A stretch of DNA of 25,613 bases from a virus (lineage: Duplodnaviria > Caudoviricetes), in IMG/VR virus record IMGVR_UViG_3300044626_000486, positions 1 to 25,613 of that record. One strand, 5' to 3'. This document shows positions 4,135 through 18,779 of the stretch, in pieces. The notes under the pieces were generated by a model, which searched no databases, had not been told where the DNA came from, and saw nothing but the letters and a program-made list of their open reading frames with translations. Each line of letters starts with the position of its first letter. Position 1 is the stretch's first letter. The translations under genes and the position numbers were made by a program.

Positions 4135-4385
4135 TACCTACTCGCTATCTGATCCAATCGTAGCCACAGAAGATAAGTAATCAGTAGAGTCACTGCGGTT
4201 GAGGCAACGCAGATTCCGAGGAGGACGTAGGCGGACCACTTTGCAACTCTTTCTCTATCACGCTTTGCTTGTTCAGCAGTGCGGATATTGCCGTATAGTT
4301 GCCGGAAGCTAGCGCGATTGCAATGGCGATGACCGTCGCAAGCCACTTGTAATTGTCTCTCACGAAAATCAGCATGTCCTTCCAT
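4134..4385 (-). CDS. Nested out-of-frame 83-aa ORF with a C-terminal TM helix
   Basis: GGGAG-7nt-ATG at 4385; TM WSAYVLLGICVASTAVTLLITYLLWL; stop overlaps the next ATG as TAATG at 4134. Confidence 0.45.
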   Translation of the reverse strand: MEGHADFRERQLQVACDGHRHCNRASFRQLYGNIRTAEQAKRDRERVAKWSAYVLLGICVASTAVTLLITYLLWLRLDQIASR

Positions 4386-4810
4386 GACGCTACTCCCGAT
4401 TCCTTCATGTCGTTGTGCGGAACGAAGAAGATCCAAAAGAATTGAACCTCTCCGATCACTGGCTCCCGAAACACCGTCAAGCTCCCCCACGCATACCTCG
4501 GCCTCTCCGGTCGTGAGCCGTTCTTGTGAAACGCCTTGACTACCGTGTAGCTCGTCAATTCGCCAGACTTTAATCTCTCCACCAGATCCCGATCCACTGT
4601 CAGGTGCTTTTCGTGCGTTATCTCTCCAAGAACCATGGAGAGAAGCTGACCCTCGGTGTACTCCAGGCATCGACACATCGATGTATTCACCCATCGAAAC
4701 CTACCTTCTTTCGTGACCGCTGCCATACCTATTGGCATGTCGGAGCACAGCCGCACAGCACCCGCTTGGGTAATGGAGACTGGCCCCATATCTGGATCCG
4801 TTAAAGCCAT
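4190..4810 (-). CDS. PAS-domain protein with a C-terminal transmembrane helix
   Basis: DMPIGMAAVTKEGRFRWVNTSMCRCLEYTEGQLLSMVLGEITHEKH...SYTVVKAFHKNGS matches the PAS/PAC consensus (PIGMA...GRF..VN...LGYSEEELL...DITHPDD). TM is WLATVIAIAIALASG. No output domain. Confidence 0.85.
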   Translation of the reverse strand: MALTDPDMGPVSITQAGAVRLCSDMPIGMAAVTKEGRFRWVNTSMCRCLEYTEGQLLSMVLGEITHEKHLTVDRDLVERLKSGELTSYTVVKAFHKNGSRPERPRYAWGSLTVFREPVIGEVQFFWIFFVPHNDMKESGVASWKDMLIFVRDNYKWLATVIAIAIALASGNYTAISALLNKQSVIEKELQSGPPTSSSESALPQPQ

Positions 4811-5564: not shown

Positions 5565-6758
5565 CTAGACAGGAGGCAAAACCGTCGTATACCTCCACCA
5601 CTTATCATTCAGTCCAAGCGTTCCAAACATGCTCGGCTCATGATCAAAGTTAGTTGTGCTCTCAGCTTGCATCGCCAATCGGAAAGATTGCTTTGAAAGC
5701 TCCTTAGCCTCAGCCAACTTGGCGTGATCCGCGTTTGTTGAGAAATGCTCGAACGCTAAACTTTCGAAGTAATCCATCATGGTCATCGGATTGATGTCCA
5801 GTGGATCGCTTAGCGAATAACCTCTATCGCTCGCCGTCACAGGAGAGGCTTCCACCAACTCCAGTGTCGTAGAACTAGGAACTCTCCTGACAACAGCTTG
5901 CCATTCAAATTCATCGCGACCCGCAGCACCGTAATGAAGACCACTTGGTAAAGAACTACTAGGAGACAGGCGAAAAATAGTGCCCACCAGATTCTGACTA
6001 AACGACGCACCTGCACAGGTAACTGTATTGCTACCTGACGTTACCGCCGCATCAGCGCCTGACACCTCATATGTCCTTAGTGGCGTAGGAGCCACATCGA
6101 CATGAACTTCATACACCTCAGCCACTGTTGGCGGAGGAACCAAGCAGAAATCCATCACACCCATACGATCGCGACTAGGCAGAATGGCATACTGGATTGG
6201 AGTCCCTGGCTGACGAAACATCTTGCGAAAACGAGGATAGTCTAAAGACGTACAAGCTTTTAACCTGTATATCTGGTTTCCTCTCCACGCTTCCGCTACC
6301 TGCTTGACTGGAACAGGAAACGGATAGCAACTCCGAAACCATGTCAATCCAGTACCAGACACATCCTTACCAGGATTAGTTTCCTCTGTCAGCGTGACGA
6401 TCGTATTACTCACGCGACGTTCGATCTGGTAAACTACATCACCCAGAATAATCTCGCCGCAGACAGCAGTGGTTGGCCAAACCGAGGAGCCAGTGATAGT
6501 CAACTGGCGCTCGTAAGTTCCACCTGTATGGTCATACGACACAGCATCGATCGTCTGCGGAGCCTCAACAAGCAACGTCAGCCTACGATTGTAAAACCTC
6601 CAGTTGTGTATGGCAGGTAACATCCGATAAGCCTTATCGATCGCCACTCGCAAACGTGCAATGTCAACCTCTGAGCCAGCCAGACCGTTACGAAGCAACA
6701 GTCTCTGAACCATGTCCCAGAAAGTGAACACATTGTTCCAGCTAGCTAAGTAGGTCAC
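5565..6758 (-). CDS. Putative head-tail adaptor protein with inserted beta domains
   Basis: N-terminal helices plus NWRF, the GTPIQYA...LVPPP motif and C-terminal helices resemble podophage adaptor proteins. Downstream of the portal. Confidence 0.55.
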   Translation of the reverse strand: MTYLASWNNVFTFWDMVQRLLLRNGLAGSEVDIARLRVAIDKAYRMLPAIHNWRFYNRRLTLLVEAPQTIDAVSYDHTGGTYERQLTITGSSVWPTTAVCGEIILGDVVYQIERRVSNTIVTLTEETNPGKDVSGTGLTWFRSCYPFPVPVKQVAEAWRGNQIYRLKACTSLDYPRFRKMFRQPGTPIQYAILPSRDRMGVMDFCLVPPPTVAEVYEVHVDVAPTPLRTYEVSGADAAVTSGSNTVTCAGASFSQNLVGTIFRLSPSSSLPSGLHYGAAGRDEFEWQAVVRRVPSSTTLELVEASPVTASDRGYSLSDPLDINPMTMMDYFESLAFEHFSTNADHAKLAEAKELSKQSFRLAMQAESTTNFDHEPSMFGTLGLNDKWWRYTTVLPPV

Positions 6759-6772
6759 AGACTACCCCATCA

Positions 6773-7219
6773 TTAGGTGTGAGTAATTGCGCCAGAGACA
6801 GTCATCGCACCACCTGGCAAGCAAGCAGCCAAGAAGCTCGTAGCAGTGCTTGCAAAGGTGAAAGTCAACACCGCAACGCCAGTAGCGCTCGTTACGACTC
6901 GCAACACCTTGTCGGCAACAAGTTCAGCGACAACCCCAGTGGTAGCTGCAATCGTGTAGTCGGTTGCATTGAGTGCAAACGTAGATGTGCTGCTGATCAA
7001 AAGAAAATCCAAACAGACGCGATTATCCAAAGCACGATTGTCGATCGTCTTGACCGTAATCGTCACAGCAATCGCATTGGTAGCCTCAGCACCAATCGAA
7101 TAAGAAACTGTATAAGCACCATCATCCATAAGGTTGATGACATCAGCCAGTTTGCGCCCAGGCGAAGGCTGAGCTACTGCCGCAATAAGTGAACTTCGCT
7201 CGGTCCCAGTTAAAGACAT
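6773..7219 (-). CDS. Putative structural Ig-like/beta protein
   Basis: T/A/V-rich beta strands (TSATGVAVLTFT). GGAG SD. Confidence 0.55.
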   Translation of the reverse strand: MSLTGTERSSLIAAVAQPSPGRKLADVINLMDDGAYTVSYSIGAEATNAIAVTITVKTIDNRALDNRVCLDFLLISSTSTFALNATDYTIAATTGVVAELVADKVLRVVTSATGVAVLTFTFASTATSFLAACLPGGAMTVSGAITHT

Positions 7220-7221
7220 TC

Positions 7222-7782
7222 CTAACTCCTTGCTCCATGTTGATCCACAACAAACTCCCGTAATTCCTGGTCTCCCATCCTAGAAAACTCAGGACTTGAC
7301 TTATACTTTGCGACTTCAGCCTGAACTAAATCCTCAGCCAATCGCACAGGTGCCTTTGGTGCCACCTCGTACTTTTGCGTACCAACTTCATCGCATTGCA
7401 GACGATTCTCTTCACACACCTTGCGAATCTTTGACACGCCATCAGCCTGCGAAACAAAAGCTCGTTTATCTCCTGGCTTCCTAGCAAGCTGACTCAAGTA
7501 AACATCATTGGGGTTTGGGGTATATCCGTCAGCCTTGGCTCCCTCAATAATCTCTTGGAGGAACTCAGGGTCATCCTTAAATTGATTCTCTAGAGTGCCG
7601 CGACCAGAGAAGAATGTGTTCTCTGTACTAACACCAGGGAATTTCTTGGAGGCTAACACCTCCCTCATATTCTTCCTGCCCTTAACGATTTCACTTTCAG
7701 GTAAAGGCGGTTCATAGCGAACCTCCCCATCACTCTCAATCATAGTGTGAACTACACCGTTGATCTTGATCTTATAAGCCAC
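7222..7782 (-). CDS. Hypothetical phage protein
   Basis: GGAG-7nt-GTG at 7782; overlaps the portal stop. Confidence 0.7.
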   Translation of the reverse strand: MAYKIKINGVVHTMIESDGEVRYEPPLPESEIVKGRKNMREVLASKKFPGVSTENTFFSGRGTLENQFKDDPEFLQEIIEGAKADGYTPNPNDVYLSQLARKPGDKRAFVSQADGVSKIRKVCEENRLQCDEVGTQKYEVAPKAPVRLAEDLVQAEVAKYKSSPEFSRMGDQELREFVVDQHGARS

Positions 7783-9889
7783 CACTCAACTCCATTAACG
7801 CTTCAGGGGGTAGGTTCTCTAACATCGCCATCATCTCAGGATCCATCTCAGGACTCTGACTCATAACATCTGGCTGCATCATCTCAGGAGGAGGGGCTTG
7901 CATATCCATAGGCATAGCCTCTGGAGGCATTTCTTCCTGCGGAGGAATCTGCTGTTCAGGAGGTGGCATTTGCTCAGGAGGTGGCATCTGCCCTTGCTGA
8001 GGAGGCATCTGAGGCTGCATAGCAGGAATTAACCAATCGGTCACATCCTGCTCCATCGCATCGCCAATTGACTTAATGAACGCATTAAGAGGCTCTGGAT
8101 TACCTGCCATTGCAATCTGATTAAGCTGCGGCAGAAGATACTGAGCAATGCGAGTCAGGTTCTCATTGTCACGGAACTTGTTTGGCTTGCGTATCGAATT
8201 GGCTTCGATCGTCATAGCCATCTCTCGAACATAGATCTCTGGATCTTCGTTGGCAATCAACTCATCCCAAAGCTGTGCACCCTCTGGGCCAAACAAAGGA
8301 ACCAAATCTTGCCCACGTACATTCCAGCCAGCGTAGATACGCTCAACATTAGCCCTATTGGTTTGCCACGCCTCCACCTTTCGACTCATCCAGTCAGGAC
8401 GTATCGACGTAGCAGCCTCTTTGAAGTTGATGTCCGCCGCAGTACGAGCAACCTTGCCGCCGACATTCATCCCATACAAAGCTTCAGTTAGACCCGTCCG
8501 CTTATCGAAGGACATCGACACGTACTCAAGCATACGTATCACATCGTAATTGATGGCAGGCGACTGAAGCATCGTAACTAGCTCATTGATATTCTGGTGA
8601 GCCATGCCATTTAGCTCAACGATAATGTTGAACTCATTGCTCTTTAGCTTTCCAATAACATCATCGCCAGCTTCCTTGAGCACAGCCCAAATGTTTCTTG
8701 AGTTCTGATAGACACGATCACACAAGCATGACATCATCACATTCAAGAAAATCAACTCACCTAGCCCCATGCCAATCGGAGCCAGAGGCCAAGGGCCACT
8801 AGAAGCCTCATAGAAGTCCAGCAGTGACACAGGCCAGCGACCATCTCTGTAGATCGGAACAGGCCAATCCAATGCCCTACGTATCTCATCGTCGCCAAGC
8901 TCTGCGGTACTTGGCGGAAAGTTAAGCGGAAAGGGTACACCTTTAGCCACAGCCAAGTAAGCGAAGTCGCCAACAGTCTGCTCGAACGCTTCATGTAGAG
9001 TCGAATCAAAATCATCTAGGCGAGTACCCACACCTACCTTAGAGTAGATCTCATACCAGATAATCTTATTAGACGTTGCGTAGGCACTGTTCTTGATCGG
9101 ATGATATTCATCCCTGCCACTCTCAGATACCTCATTAGCGTCTGCACCAGCCACGCCAACATTACGTGCGTAACGACTAAGAGAGCCAGCAGGTAGATCA
9201 AATCTTCGCTCAACATCCCAGTAATTCTCAATGTGCTGTCTGCCAATCCAGCCGCAATCACTCAAGTTTGGCTTAGTACACTGAGGGTCAATAAACAGAC
9301 GCAAGCAAGAATCGAACACCGATCTAGTCAGCACTCGCTCGCTACCTGGGAACTGATACTTCTCCGTCCACAGGCAACCTCGCCCAGTAATCAAAGCCTC
9401 TGTAATCGCAAGCTGGCTTTCAGCAATCAACCCACCATTAGGCTGCTCACGTTGAGCATAAGACAGGTATTGCTCCATGAGTGAACAACGAGTCTTATTT
9501 CGCCTGCGATTACTTTCATATCGCTGTAAAAAATCCTGGTACCTCTGTGCCGTGGCAGGATCGGCAGGATCACCCATGACATCGGGCTCAATGTCTAGAC
9601 GAGCGTAAGGGCGAGCAGAGATACCAGGATAGTCCCAATAGAGTGAAGGACCAAACACGCTGACAAGTTCAAAAGCTTTTGCTATCGTCATTTTGAACTG
9701 AGGGGCTGGCAGGTTACTAAAGAACTTATTGCGGAACGTATCGTCCCACATAAAGCCGCACGTACCCTGATAGAAGTTCCGGCAAATGTCAGCGGTCTGA
9801 CGAAAGGGCTCTCTCGCTTTACGAGCTTGCTCAATCCTCGTCAACCAAACACTCACCAGTCGTTCAAGCCTACCCCGAATCTCAAGCAT
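7772..9889 (-). CDS. Portal protein (P22-like size) with a Pro/Gln/Met-rich C-terminal tail
   Basis: 705 aa downstream of TerL. EALITGRGCLW, LFIDP and FDKRTGLTEALYG...RTAAD are portal-like motifs. Confidence 0.8.
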   Translation of the reverse strand: MLEIRGRLERLVSVWLTRIEQARKAREPFRQTADICRNFYQGTCGFMWDDTFRNKFFSNLPAPQFKMTIAKAFELVSVFGPSLYWDYPGISARPYARLDIEPDVMGDPADPATAQRYQDFLQRYESNRRRNKTRCSLMEQYLSYAQREQPNGGLIAESQLAITEALITGRGCLWTEKYQFPGSERVLTRSVFDSCLRLFIDPQCTKPNLSDCGWIGRQHIENYWDVERRFDLPAGSLSRYARNVGVAGADANEVSESGRDEYHPIKNSAYATSNKIIWYEIYSKVGVGTRLDDFDSTLHEAFEQTVGDFAYLAVAKGVPFPLNFPPSTAELGDDEIRRALDWPVPIYRDGRWPVSLLDFYEASSGPWPLAPIGMGLGELIFLNVMMSCLCDRVYQNSRNIWAVLKEAGDDVIGKLKSNEFNIIVELNGMAHQNINELVTMLQSPAINYDVIRMLEYVSMSFDKRTGLTEALYGMNVGGKVARTAADINFKEAATSIRPDWMSRKVEAWQTNRANVERIYAGWNVRGQDLVPLFGPEGAQLWDELIANEDPEIYVREMAMTIEANSIRKPNKFRDNENLTRIAQYLLPQLNQIAMAGNPEPLNAFIKSIGDAMEQDVTDWLIPAMQPQMPPQQGQMPPPEQMPPPEQQIPPQEEMPPEAMPMDMQAPPPEMMQPDVMSQSPEMDPEMMAMLENLPPEALMELSGGL
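7921..8020 (-). repeat. Imperfect tandem coding repeats in the portal tail (PPPEQM-type)
   Basis: tcaggaggtggcat occurs twice with an 18-bp period, plus related units. Confidence 0.7.
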
Positions 9890-14667: not shown

Positions 14668-15876
14668 TTAGTTTCCCCTGTAGTTCGCGCCCAGAATCTC
14701 AGCGTTGTCTGGATCACGCTCTAACATTTCTCGAAATGACATCTTACGATTCACCGGCGTTTCTACCGGCTGCACAAAAGCATTGCTCACTTGCACCTTT
14801 CGTGCGTCAGGCTTCTTCCTGGCCTGCTCTACAAACTGATTCTTCTTTGCTTCAACCTGTTGCTTCTTTTCTGCCGCCAACTCTTCTTGGTTTTTGGCAG
14901 GCTCTACTGGGGGAAGCATCCTGTACGCCAACTTCCAGATACGTAGGTCTGGCTGATCCACACCAAGTTCGTTGCAGATCTCTCGAACCTTGTTGCTGTA
15001 AAGCAGCCCACGCTCTGTAGGAATTTCTTTTCCATCCAAGCCAACCATGACATTGCCATCATTACTGACTCGGAAGAATTCGTTTTTGTGGTCGGTGTAG
15101 AACTTCTGGAACTCGTTCTCTTCTTGCTGCTGGTATCTATAAGCCTGCACCTGCTTTTGCTTCTCAGCTAGATTCGCAGCTAGCTGGGTGTGGTAAGCTT
15201 TAATGCGGCTTTCGATTTTGTTTTCAATTTCCTCTAGCAACCCAGCTTCCTGCATTGCAGTCACTGGATCATTGACCATAAGCTGGCTGCGTCTCTGCTG
15301 CTCAGTGACGGCCTCATTAAGCTGCTGAGCGGCTTTCTGTCCATCGATCCCATACTTAGGATCAGGCAAAAACTTCGAGGTCTTGTCGTCGAACTCGCAA
15401 TACTTGGTTAGATTCTGGTCGATCTCAACCTTTTGCCAGCGACGTAGCTTTTGTTCGTTAGTCTCAGGCTTGACTGGCTCTGCAATCTGTTGCTGAACCG
15501 GCTGCTGCTGACTAAGAGCTTCAACCTGAGCCTGTAACTCAGCCATTCTTCGTCGCTGCTCATCACGCTCAGCAAAAACATTAACCAGTTGCTTCTGAAT
15601 CTCATCCTCAGAATACTGGTCGGCAGCGATATTAACTTTAGCTAATGCTTGCTTTAGCGGAGAGACTTCGGCTACAGGTGCGGGTTCGGAGCCAGCTTCT
15701 GGTGCCTTGGCTTCAGGCTGCTGCTCTACCGCCGACTCGACCTGCTGCTCAACAGCCTCTGGAGTTGCACTTTCTGATTCGACTGACTCAGCCTCAGGTG
15801 CAGTTGCTCCATCACGATTAGCGGCACGCTCCGCTAATCTCTCCTGAATCATCTTGGTCAATTCGCTATCAGCCAT
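14668..15876 (-). CDS. Capsid scaffolding protein
   Basis: Acidic E/Q/P-rich and coiled-coil, directly upstream of the MCP. Start reassigned to ATG 15876 (AAGGA SD). Confidence 0.7.
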   Translation of the reverse strand: MADSELTKMIQERLAERAANRDGATAPEAESVESESATPEAVEQQVESAVEQQPEAKAPEAGSEPAPVAEVSPLKQALAKVNIAADQYSEDEIQKQLVNVFAERDEQRRRMAELQAQVEALSQQQPVQQQIAEPVKPETNEQKLRRWQKVEIDQNLTKYCEFDDKTSKFLPDPKYGIDGQKAAQQLNEAVTEQQRRSQLMVNDPVTAMQEAGLLEEIENKIESRIKAYHTQLAANLAEKQKQVQAYRYQQQEENEFQKFYTDHKNEFFRVSNDGNVMVGLDGKEIPTERGLLYSNKVREICNELGVDQPDLRIWKLAYRMLPPVEPAKNQEELAAEKKQQVEAKKNQFVEQARKKPDARKVQVSNAFVQPVETPVNRKMSFREMLERDPDNAEILGANYRGN

Positions 15877-16002
15877 GTCATTTCCTTGGGGTGGGGTGGA
15901 AGGGGGTCTCCGCATATCTTTCCAACTGCCACAAGAAATAATTGGCTCTCAAAGGTAATACTGGTGAGAGCAGAACAATAATTGGAAGAGGAGGATAAAA
16001 AA
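15877..16002. promoter_or_regulatory. Divergent control region between the late operon and the HTH gene
   Basis: Divergent intergenic gap. Contains IR GCTCTCA-N13-TGAGAGC (15945-15971) flanked by AATAATTGG direct repeats (15937, 15977). Confidence 0.55.
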
Positions 16003-16233
16003 GTGGAGCAGGTAGTCGGAATGATTGACCCCAGAACTGAAGAGCTTGTAACACTCAAGGAGTTAGGTCAGAGGCTACAGAGAACGTACAACAACATCTA
16101 CGAGTTGGTACGTGTTGGCCGAGAGAGTGTTGGAGGCAAGACAGTGCAACTGGAAGTTATTAAAACCCCAGGCGGCATGAGAACTTCGATGGAAGCGTAC
16201 TATAGATTTCTAAGGAAACTAAATGAGTGCTAA
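16003..16233 (+). CDS. DUF1580-type winged HTH (excisionase/MerR-like)
   Basis: IDPRTEELVTLKELGQRL...VQLEVIKTPGGMRTSMEAYYRFL matches the DUF1580 pattern (LET...GG...TS.EA..RF). GAGGAGG SD before GTG 16003. Confidence 0.75.
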   Translation: MEQVVGMIDPRTEELVTLKELGQRLQRTYNNIYELVRVGRESVGGKTVQLEVIKTPGGMRTSMEAYYRFLRKLNEC

Positions 16234-16579
16234 CGAAGATTACATAATCCAAGGATTAGACGCACTGACTCAGGGAATCACTGAGCTTACTACGCAAGTC
16301 GAAACACTTCGAGCAGAGCAAGATGAAGTAAGGATACCGGCGACTGTCACCGTAGCAATGGAATCCCTAAAGATCTTGAGCCGTAGCCAAAAGATTGTCA
16401 CTCGGCATACTGTCGAGAGGAACTCTGGCGTCGACACCACAAACAACGAAGTACCGTGTGAGTCGATCCATAGGTACCCCAGACCGCTTCAGGAAAGCGA
16501 GGCTGAGTTGCGAGATGTTTGTTGCCAACTGATCTCTGGCTATCTTATTCAATCGCTTGGCTCCCACGGCACCGATTGA
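16223..16579 (+). CDS. Hypothetical protein with an N-terminal coiled coil
   Basis: AAGGA SD and overlap-coupled to the HTH gene. The 3' 213 bp are antisense to the recombinase. Confidence 0.55.
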   Translation: MSANEDYIIQGLDALTQGITELTTQVETLRAEQDEVRIPATVTVAMESLKILSRSQKIVTRHTVERNSGVDTTNNEVPCESIHRYPRPLQESEAELRDVCCQLISGYLIQSLGSHGTD

Positions 16580-18043
16580 GTCCAAGAACTGAGGCCAGAT
16601 GTTTTCGACCGAAGTGACCTGACGATTAAATAAAGGCGTATACTTTGGCTTGACCCTTTTGGTCCTCACATCCTTGCGACTCAATCTTCCCTTGATCGCA
16701 TACACCGCTGGCTTAATGCCCTTTTGCTGAGCAGTGATTGCATTGACGATAGCACAGGAGTGCGTGCCCTTGAACCCGTACTCTCGTCGTACAGTCATCG
16801 CCATTTGAAACCTAGCCGCCCTTGCCCAGTCAACGATGTACCTGCTTTGATTGCCACACTTAACACCTTTGTAGAGCATGAATCGATGAGGCTCAGTGTA
16901 GCAGAGACCTTCACGCTTCATACGCGAGAAGCACTCCACAACCCTTGCTGACTTGATTTTGCTTTCTAGTTCCGCAAACATTGTAACCAGACTTAGGTAC
17001 CAGTCTGAGTCAGTGCTGTCGGTAGAGATGTTCTCTTCTATCAGCCTTAGCGTTAAACCCTTCTTCCTCAACATAGCCACTGTATTGGCCATGTCCTTGA
17101 GCGAACGAAAGATACGGTCTCCACGGTAAACAACTAAACAATCTCCTGGCTTTGCTTCCTTCAAGAATCTACTGCCACCTGGGCGCTGATCGAAGGGAAC
17201 CTTAAACGCAGACACCGCCTCGTCAGCCACAACCCCCATGCACTCGCTCTCAGAGTACTTGGCTAACTCCTCCTCAACTCTCATCCGTTGATTGGCTAAA
17301 CCCAAGCCACTCTCTAGCTGACCATCTGATGAAACGCGAATGTAACCCCAAACACGCTTGAGCGATTGAACCTGCTTCTTTGGCTTTGCGTATGGAGATA
17401 GTATCTTGCTTGGCAGATCACCCTCCCTGATCTTAGACACCTCCTCCATCCTAATAGACTTGGGTGTGCTACGTGCCGACTTGATGCCCTTACCTGCCTT
17501 TAGTCGCTTAATCGCCGCAGCTTCCCTCACTCGGAAGCCAAGCATGCGCGAGAAGTGCTCTGCAAGCACAGCCAGTAGGGCCGCCTTCAATTGTCCACTA
17601 GGACTACTCAAATCAATGTCGTCGTTGATAAAGTGAACAAGAATGCCTTTGCGACGAAACAGATCGATCGTAGTACCAAAGTCACCTACGTTGCGGAACA
17701 TTCTGTCCACCGACCAAACGAGAACATGATCTCCTGGCCGTAAGCTCTCAAGCAACTTGGAGCCAGCGGGGCGCTTACTTAGATGATTCTTATCATAAGC
17801 ACTTACTCCCGCGTCAATAAAAAAGCCAGGAGGTGCGGATTCTGGATACCTATCGGTTGACCAAGGTACACCTGCGAGCTTAGAATGTTTATACTGTACA
17901 CATCTATCTGCCTGTGTTTCTGGGCTCAGAGATGTTCGTACACTCCCAGACTCAGAGATTCGGCAATACGCAACAACGCAAGGAGGTCGTTCTGTGAAGA
18001 AAGTAGATCCTGTCGCAGATTTTTTAGCAGGTCGTGAAGCCAA
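16367..18043 (-). CDS. Serine recombinase with two tandem catalytic (resolvase) domains
   Basis: Domain 1: AYCRIS(S30), FIDAGVSA, RPAG, DRMFR. Domain 2: GYIRVS(S238), ADEAVSA, RPGG, DRIFR. GAGGGG SD before the TTG start. Confidence 0.9.
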   Translation of the reverse strand: MASRPAKKSATGSTFFTERPPCVVAYCRISESGSVRTSLSPETQADRCVQYKHSKLAGVPWSTDRYPESAPPGFFIDAGVSAYDKNHLSKRPAGSKLLESLRPGDHVLVWSVDRMFRNVGDFGTTIDLFRRKGILVHFINDDIDLSSPSGQLKAALLAVLAEHFSRMLGFRVREAAAIKRLKAGKGIKSARSTPKSIRMEEVSKIREGDLPSKILSPYAKPKKQVQSLKRVWGYIRVSSDGQLESGLGLANQRMRVEEELAKYSESECMGVVADEAVSAFKVPFDQRPGGSRFLKEAKPGDCLVVYRGDRIFRSLKDMANTVAMLRKKGLTLRLIEENISTDSTDSDWYLSLVTMFAELESKIKSARVVECFSRMKREGLCYTEPHRFMLYKGVKCGNQSRYIVDWARAARFQMAMTVRREYGFKGTHSCAIVNAITAQQKGIKPAVYAIKGRLSRKDVRTKRVKPKYTPLFNRQVTSVENIWPQFLDSIGAVGAKRLNKIARDQLATNISQLSLAFLKRSGVPMDRLTRYFVVCGVDARVPLDSMPSDNLLATAQDL

Positions 18044-18779
18044 GAGATTAACCCCTCTGGAAGAAAGCCAATACTACGAACAAGCAAAGAGCGGCGATAA
18101 AAAAGCAATCGAAATACTGTTGTGCTCTCAGGCACACTGGATCTGGACCCTCTGCCATAATCACCCCAAGCCTCCTCAAGTCAACACGGACGAACTATTC
18201 AACGAAGCAATGTGCCAAGCCTATTTAGCAATAAAGAATTTTGATCCTGCCAAGGGAAGACTTTCATCGTTCTTCTCTCGCGTCATCCCAAGGAAGTGTT
18301 CTGACTACGTGGTGAAGACAAGTAGCACCTTCGGCAAACGAATACCAATGGCCTACTCTTCGGAAACAAATTCTTTTCTCATTGACGAAGACAATGTAAA
18401 AGCAGTGTTAGCCGAAAACAAAGAAAGCAACATCTACGAGGACGAGTACCACAGCGAAGTAGACGAACTTGCTGGAGTAGTGACTTCAATACTAGCGGAG
18501 ATGGAGCCAAGGTCAAGGTGGATTGTTGCAAAAAGACAAGAAGGCAAGACAGCGGAGGAAATTGCAGCCGAGGAGACACTGAACAACCTGCGATCTGGAA
18601 GGATGGGCCGAGTGGTAGAAGCCAGCAGTGTCATGCTGGCCCTACACGCTATTAAACGCGAAGTCTTTCGTGAACTGTCTCGACGCGACATACCTATCGA
18701 TTGCTGCGTCTCTGGCTCCCGAATCGGCAAGCTATTCGACGACCTCAATACCGACGCCCAAAATCGCCTTTTCGACTAA
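17994..18779 (+). CDS. Sigma-70-family RNA polymerase sigma factor
   Basis: LTPLEE...AKSGDKKAIEILL (region 1.2/2.1), DELFNEA...AIKNFDPAKGRLSSF (2.2-2.4), MEPRSRWIV...GKTAEEIA (region 4). Perfect AAGGAGGT SD. Confidence 0.88.
   Translation: MKKVDPVADFLAGREAKRLTPLEESQYYEQAKSGDKKAIEILLCSQAHWIWTLCHNHPKPPQVNTDELFNEAMCQAYLAIKNFDPAKGRLSSFFSRVIPRKCSDYVVKTSSTFGKRIPMAYSSETNSFLIDEDNVKAVLAENKESNIYEDEYHSEVDELAGVVTSILAEMEPRSRWIVAKRQEGKTAEEIAAEETLNNLRSGRMGRVVEASSVMLALHAIKREVFRELSRRDIPIDCCVSGSRIGKLFDDLNTDAQNRLFD

Follow-up and report, generated by a model that had tools for sequence, protein, structure and literature searches.

A stretch of viral DNA of 25,613 nucleotides (the window, by which we mean the whole of it) encodes a serine recombinase in which two intact catalytic domains, D1 and D2, are carried in tandem on one chain. 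This is a conserved architecture among the phage relatives described below, and covariation within the family makes it somewhat probable that one chain is a ready-made cutting dimer for an asymmetric site, two such chains synapsing like to like. The gene is made up as follows.

16367 to 18043, minus strand: tandem-domain serine recombinase gene, 558 aa, a single ORF with a TTG start.
17498 to 17980, minus strand: catalytic domain D1 with helix E, aa 22-182; the S30 codon is at 17954-17956, and D1 has no DNA-binding domain of its own.
17357 to 17497, minus strand: basic, fast-evolving linker, aa 183-229, with pLDDT 59-65 for aa 191-220.
16910 to 17356, minus strand: catalytic domain D2 with helix E, aa 230-378; the S238 codon is at 17330-17332, and Q14 and E118 are kept.
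16370 to 16909, minus strand: predicted recombinase-domain-like DNA-binding region (about aa 379-500, from the model alignment) and helical tail, with no zinc ribbon.

The reading frame is uninterrupted over its 558 codons, and PF00239 matches the protein in two stretches (E 1.6e-49, 168 bits against the Pfam cut-off of 23.3), as had been expected when the two domains were initially annotated; no other Pfam family matches it up to E 1. TTG 18043, the sole start codon upstream of the first catalytic motif, lies inside a head-to-head sigma-like gene, and we accept it as the start because in L004, a relative with 61% identity, this codon is ATG, and because GAGGGG stands 8 bases upstream. In the databases the recombinases of this family are called 'DNA invertase Pin-like', and nothing more specific.

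Word-indexed searches yielded 24 and then 26 near-full-length relatives, two of them in common. A profile search of 1.84 billion representatives at 50% identity gave 366 matches at E <= 1e-30; among the best 150 of these, 10 were already known; of the remaining 140, 138 carry both domains, and the last two are short fragments. The odd TTG start within another gene, and the many database copies that begin past the first serine, might suggest an artefact of annotation or assembly, or a recent read-through of two adjacent resolvase genes. We find this scarcely credible: besides the 138 two-domain representatives, each of the 15 locus groups whose DNA was read has the gene as one frame, the DNA of all three shortened database copies examined shows the motif upstream in the same frame, and D1 and D2 belong to separate deep clades. 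The frame is also intact in five other assemblies of the phage (three identical, two with 36 base differences and one residue change), no indel or joint was detected at the gene in contigs of eight sequencing runs, and in runs X11, X12 and X18, which were not flagged as possible sources, it is spanned by one contig in each. The initial annotation had reckoned with a stop or frameshift between the domains, with homologues that were always two separate genes, and with a domain degenerate across homologues; neither the contigs of the eight runs nor the five assemblies contain such a stop or frameshift, the homologues are always one gene in the loci read, and the catalytic serine is kept in 154/155 D1 and 155/155 D2 copies. 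Synonymous and non-synonymous differences (8/0 in D1 and 13/0 in D2 between the window and L010; 20/2 and 11/3 between L004 and L007) indicate that the gene is under purifying selection, with D1 constrained as much as D2.

D1 and D2 are 31% identical (47/152). The motif residues of D1 are Y26-x-R28-x-S30, D77, R91 and D113-R114-x-x-R117, and those of D2 are Y234-x-R236-x-S238, D274, R287 and D309-R310-x-x-R313, which agrees, like the two PF00239 stretches, with the original description of two full catalytic domains with nucleophiles S30 and S238. In the Tn3/gamma-delta numbering used from here on for positions such as Q14, E118 and R125, both domains of the window protein have Y6, R8, S10, Q19, D36, S39, R45, D67, R68, R71 and R125, and both have S at position 119; the departures are in D1, where the Q14 position is S34 and the E118 position F164. 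The same is seen in the nearer family, in which D1 has S for Q14 in 32/34 cases and is without E118 in 56/57. For Tn3 resolvase, Olorunniji and Stark (PMC2794168) rank Y6, R8, S10, D36, R68 and R71 as most important, put Q14, Q19, R45, D67 and E118 in a less extreme class, assign no catalytic part to R119 and R125, and give a 50-100 fold fall in cleavage on mutating Q14 or E118. To judge from the two PF00239 matches, the fold and the presence of all six key residues in both domains, the window protein belongs to the serine recombinase superfamily.

Key residues were counted in 155 of the 196 two-domain sequences, namely those covering all twelve key columns. All six are kept in 143 copies of D1, in 138 of D2, and in both domains of 126 proteins. 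Position 118 is E in 133/138 copies of D2, whereas D1 has E in 45, K in 37, Y in 20 and Q in 12; it is K or R in 44/190 copies of D1, D2 keeping E or D. The absence of Q14 and E118 from D1 in the window's clade, together with the variability of the D67 position of D1 (D in 104/138), could mean that D1 seldom cuts and serves as a structural or regulatory partner, comparable with the accessory subunits of a resolvase synaptosome, and that the D2s of several chains carry out catalysis. We consider this quite improbable, since D1 has retained its serine and its six key residues no less often than D2, S occurs at position 14 in 9/103 single-domain relatives as well, and R71 has become G in seven copies of D2 but in none of D1. 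Moreover, Q14 has been lost from D1, D2, both or neither according to clade (among 158 sequences, D1/D2 are Q/S in 37, S/Q in 33, Q/Q in 33 and S/S in 26), so the D1 of the window is not uniquely crippled. A strict rule of one Q14 per chain was considered and rejected.

Individual sub-clades show further variations. Nine (P0147, P0152, P0156, P0173, P0177, P0193, P0198, P0218 and P0228) have G, A or C in place of R71 of D2, and their second site may be dead; two others (P0141, P0159) show a reversed asymmetry, E118 being kept in D1 and lost in D2.

When 44 diverse pairs were placed in a tree with 41 single-domain proteins, a starred branch had every one of the 44 D1 domains on one side, and 43/44 D2 domains clustered together. 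The trees were quick trees, with no root inferred, and the pattern agrees with a single ancient duplication or fusion. The C-terminal region of the tandem family is also present in the nearest single-domain proteins (HMM E 3e-18 to 1e-11). The picture of a single-chain pseudo-heterodimer, put forward from the window's letters, is thus borne out by a family in which the architecture is conserved, one gene encodes it, both serines are kept and D1 and D2 form separate clades, and the suggested search for homologues found both the same architecture (in the 138 representatives above) and conserved synteny with head genes (in 13/13 locus groups, described below).

With 24 aligned rows, AlphaFold gave a model of pTM 0.42, and with 150 rows one of pTM 0.80 and mean pLDDT 89, so that D1, D2 and the C-terminal region are predicted to pack in a defined arrangement. 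Each domain has a long helix E of its own, as originally noted (148-182 in D1, 346-378 in D2), and a fold search with the model returned serine recombinase catalytic domains at Z 13-15. D1 comes within 1.6 A of Sin 5c32 and D2 within 2.1 A of 2gm4, both activated subunits; the inactive 2rsl, at 3.3 A, fits worse. Between the two domains, the distance from the R125 position of D1 to the Y6 position of D2 is 40-86 residues (median 51, in 196 sequences), of which about 16 are helix and strand. The linker is the fastest-diverging part of the recombinase, and the description of it as a basic connection between the domains holds for aa 183-229, with low pLDDT at 191-220.

Aligned together with D2, the C-terminal part models as an integrase-type recombinase domain. 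Residues 224-497 match SPbeta integrase 8-291 (9dxd; Z 11.1, 3.8 A, 239 residues), and 229-500 match Bxb1 1-276 (9iu2; Z 14.1, 5.8 A, 249 residues); the fit of D2 plus C-terminal region to SPbeta integrase is 3.6-3.8 A over 223-239 residues for the synaptic states and 8.4 A for the dimeric state. The window protein has no PF13408 match and no CxxC, and CxxC occurs in only 7/193 C-terminal regions of the family (these being 104-235 aa long). A degenerate recombinase domain without a zinc ribbon had been proposed at the outset, and fold and cysteine content support this; PF07508, which had been suggested for the check, had no match either in the window protein or in 13 other two-domain proteins.

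How might two domains on one chain be paired? In the serine recombinase tetramer, as set out in PMC4058570 and PMC6007550, each cutting dimer sits on a single duplex, and rotating dimers, which antiparallel E helices hold together (PMC4058570), span two duplexes. As a control we used 103 single-domain serine recombinases from the loci and matches, with tree correction, among which 105-120 is the strongest informative charge pair (r -0.62; 53 +/- and 10 -/+) and 102-124 the next (r -0.44). We infer from helix geometry that the 105-120 contact marks the rotating dimer; no paper stating this contact was found in the literature, and positions 102, 105 and 124 are given as activating in PMC2602789. 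Among 190 tandem proteins (about 175 effective sequences), 105-120 covaries within D1 (r -0.48, bootstrap -0.63 to -0.30) and within D2 (r -0.20, bootstrap -0.36 to -0.04, p 0.013), but there is no charge covariation across D1-D2 (r +0.15 and +0.12); the 109-120 pair shows the same pattern, within domains and not across, and dropping the 21 sequences of the window's clade leaves the 105-120 result unchanged. Because residues 15 apart on an unbroken helix cannot touch, the antiparallel partners are likely to be D1:D1' and D2:D2'. Some weak D1-D2 pairs, chosen after inspection (107-103, r -0.31; 118-118, -0.18; 118-122, -0.28, p 0.06), fall near the same helix position; in the cutting dimer of resolvase E118 faces E118 (PMC2794168), and these weaker signals are as might be expected for a D1-D2 cutting dimer in which the E118 side chains meet. 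The D1 pair 102-124, which came top in DCA, failed the independent-pairs test (median p 0.29) and carries no weight in this argument.

A mechanically simpler alternative follows the proposal made for IS607 transposase: one chain would be a rotating dimer bridging two sites, two D2s with their DNA-binding domains holding a phage site while the two tethered D1s captured a loosely specified target, and no linker would run across the swivel. In IS607 TnpA the dimers form rotating pairs (PMC4058570), D1 has no DNA-binding domain, and the monomer model with pTM 0.80 has both domains activated. Nevertheless, we rate this as improbable, since the antiparallel 105-120 and 109-120 pairs covary inside each domain and not D1 against D2, and since the undocked model has the same activated conformation in both catalytic domains, so that this conformation does not discriminate between pairings. 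Against the cutting dimer, for its part, stand the absence of Q14 and E118 from D1 in the nearer family and the fact that the activated monomer model fits a rotating pair within the chain at least as well. Of the two possibilities offered by the initial annotation, the cutting of an asymmetric site is therefore the one favoured by covariation, and the bridging of two sites is disfavoured.

The accepted view of serine recombinases is that DNA is exchanged as one pair of subunits rotates freely against the other pair, and links across the tetramer would be expected to block this movement. Because covariation favours the chain as the cutting dimer, the tether would cross the rotation interface, in keeping with the early suggestion that it would constrain rotation. 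In such a cutting dimer, D1 would cut one half of the crossover site and D2, anchored by the predicted DNA-binding domain, the other; two chains, one per site, would form the usual four-domain synapse, whose rotating pairs would be D1:D1' and D2:D2'. The linker (25-70 residues) would cross the flat swivel, allowing a half turn and hindering repeated turns: after the half turn the D1 halves would have changed places and each chain would straddle both products, and repeated turns would wind the linkers. The site would need one strongly read half, and the products would be the same kind of site as the substrates, so that the tether and a neighbouring Xis-like protein, and not a zinc ribbon or coiled coil, would have to supply direction. 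PMC4817059 describes repeated turns as rare with wild-type Hin and frequent with activated Hin. Diagonal contacts across the tetramer are expected, according to PMC3783163, to inhibit rotation, and this expectation counts against a model in which the linkers cross.

A family with its linker predicted to lie across the rotation interface would provide a direct test of the rotation model (half turns yes, multiple turns no), and could show a new way to set the direction of recombination; two separately mutable active sites with one DNA-binding domain would suit engineers concerned with asymmetric targets and single- versus double-strand control. On a bolder reading, which we think rather unlikely, the tether would be a built-in ratchet that imposes the half-turn limit and gives direction with no need of a zinc ribbon, a coiled coil or a synaptosome; the protein would integrate the phage at asymmetric sites needing one specific half-site, as an undescribed class with hundreds of clusters. 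If true, this would make it a natural single-chain heterodimer for genome editing.

Comparison with known systems brings out what is distinctive. In the large serine integrases (SPbeta, Bxb1, phiC31, A118/LI) the catalytic and recombinase domains are like D2 and the C-terminal region as modelled, and the phage setting with a small helix-turn-helix (HTH) neighbour is similar, but the window protein is preceded at its N-terminal side by a further complete catalytic domain, has a single predicted DNA-binding domain for its two active sites, and has neither zinc ribbon nor coiled coil. In LI integrase the zinc ribbon and coiled coil set the choice of attP x attB (PMC3783163); the tandem family would have to be controlled otherwise, plausibly by the tether and the HTH protein. 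The small resolvases and invertases (gamma-delta, Tn3, Sin, Gin, Hin) have the same catalytic fold and residues, with the lowest rmsd (1.6-2.4 A) to subunits in the activated state, and recombination between like sites is predicted for the tandem protein too; it differs from them in having two catalytic domains, and a recombinase-type in place of a small HTH DNA-binding domain. It has 558 aa against about 190 and no PF02796 match up to E 1, and no convincing res accessory-site array or inverted crossover sites were found in five regions or in G003, a 70-kb record rated complete. IS607 TnpA likewise has fewer specifically bound half-sites than active sites, and provides a precedent for loose reading of the target (PMC4058570), but the N-terminal domain of the window protein is a second catalytic domain and not of MerR type, no TnpB is adjacent in the window (the neighbours are sigma-like, hypothetical and HTH genes), NF033518 scores 20 bits against a cut-off of 110, and the gene has a fixed core-gene position in phages. 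Closest in sequence are single-domain phage proteins of 240-430 aa with a catalytic and a short recombinase domain (P0051, P0079, P0081, L035, L039, L040, L048), likely to represent the ancestral form before duplication or fusion. A possible new architecture had been suspected from the start, and we found no description of a single-chain serine recombinase with two catalytic domains in the literature searched (main texts, few of them from subscription journals); the phrase 'two catalytic domains' in PMC9943657 refers to the normal dimer.

The window, a phage contig, carries genes for capsid, portal, helicase, SSB and exonuclease, and the phage was detected in lake and drinking-water metagenomes. 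Around the recombinase gene lie the following.

15916 to 15981, no strand: sole non-coding gap near the gene, the divergent scaffold/HTH promoter region; a weak candidate recombination site.
15982 to 16233, plus strand: small helix-turn-helix gene of Xis-like type, probably starting at ATG 16021; its product may be a directionality factor or a regulator.
16223 to 16579, plus strand: hypothetical gene of 118 aa that overlaps the 3' end of the recombinase gene; it is conserved in L024 and the window's clade.
17994 to 18779, plus strand: sigma-70/ECF-like gene (PF04542, E 2.5e-7), overlapping the recombinase start head-to-head.

Two-domain genes were found in 15 groups of loci, carried by uncultured phages of the 70-kb class, and the same head-gene family adjoins the recombinase in all 13 groups with enough flank. 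A small HTH gene lies within about 0.8 kb of the recombinase in 14/15 groups and is head-to-head with the scaffold gene wherever both are seen; none was found at L044, the one locus that provides the context of clade A5. The HTH protein of the window has no Pfam match, some of its orthologues match HTH_17 (L034 at E 2e-6, above the cut-off, others below it), and one of them resembles DUF1580 at E 0.027; in calling the gene Xis-like we presume on what is generally known of the HTH_17 family. The 118-aa hypothetical gene matched no family. The sigma-like gene, preceded by AAGGAGG at 17980-17986, is at the same place in 10/15 groups. In L101 the recombinase is flipped and lies downstream of the HTH gene, and in L048, L054/L055 and L108 a single-domain recombinase occupies the same spot beside the same head genes.

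What does the recombinase do for the phage? Integration and excision of the phage genome has, we estimate, a little less than an even chance of being its role, and we place it ahead of multimer resolution. In G003 it is the only PF00239 gene, and a scan of the 75 ORFs, most of them without a PHROG, named no other integrase and no repressor. Its being the sole recombinase there, and the adjacency of the Xis-like gene in 14/15 groups, even where the recombinase is flipped, count in favour of integration and excision; against them, no repressor was recognised in G003, and no prophage and no junction were found. In Ralstonia phage RSM3 a small serine recombinase is annotated beside attP in the phage record. 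The same architecture might alternatively act between identical sites ahead of packaging, resolving circular multimers of the phage or inverting a segment, with the HTH protein regulating the head operon and not recombination. Like-to-like synapsis, which gives products of the same kind as the substrates, would suit this, as would the rarity of CxxC in the family, the position near head genes in every group with enough flank, the head-to-head arrangement of HTH and scaffold genes and the lack of a prophage, and an integrase without its coiled coil acts as an unregulated resolvase (PMC3783163). We think this role doubtful, however, since no repeated candidate site or inverted form was seen, and since resolution between like sites needs a topological filter, of which none was identified.

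The recombination joints that might have decided the role were sought, as the initial annotation had advised, but no attP/attB pair, prophage or inversion joint was present at the locus in contigs of the eight runs. In run X1 one contig departs from the phage sequence at 15943, within the scaffold/HTH gap, with about 100 unlike bases, which could be a host junction or a related phage; this loose end had no match in viral contigs, and the phage side matched three known contigs only. Repeat scans around the gene in the window and four relatives gave chance-level repeats only, an exact-repeat search of G003 nothing at the recombinase, a promoter scan chance level, and tRNA scans of 37 loci no tRNA beside the gene; Rfam gave no match, either in this hunt or for a CRISPR-like array in L008. 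As to hosts, the two-domain protein was absent from 50,697 phage records and 72,556 plasmids (plasmid query P0145), and the capsid protein had no match in the same phage records. Searching 185,579 genomes with patterns of the window's clade gave one match, a contig of 41 kb on which the genes scanned were either phage-like or unassigned, and the atlas clusters of the family are viral. In RNA run X20, contigs lay on late genes only, and none on the recombinase.

Finally, we draw attention to some features of these genomes in their own right. Over 15982-18779 of the window the plus strand carries the HTH, hypothetical and sigma-like genes, and the recombinase lies between them in antisense and overlaps both neighbours, a layout that suggests antisense control; in L101 and L048 the recombinase runs in the same direction as the HTH gene. 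An AT-rich TATT-type motif precedes the HTH gene at 15876-16020 and in the gaps of L004, L005, L006, L008 and L018, and in nearer relatives a C-rich CCCCAAGG motif precedes the scaffold gene in the divergent gap; these are candidates for an early promoter and a phage-sigma promoter. G003 has an imperfect terminal direct repeat of about 1.1 kb (L135:1-1100 and the end of L138), and several short repeats recur upstream of its small genes at 1.3-6.7 kb. In L008 a TnpB-like ORF (5684-7597, plus strand; NF040570, E 6.8e-12, below the cut-off), with weak Cas12f1-like and T5orf172 matches, is followed at 7560-8116 by the CRISPR-like array, which has eight repeats of period 71-74 and lies beside the sigma-like gene. 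Among the late genes of the window, a 206-aa gene (4190-4810, minus strand) encodes a protein with a PAS-like domain (PF00989, E 2e-4, just under the cut-off) and a hydrophobic C-terminal segment.
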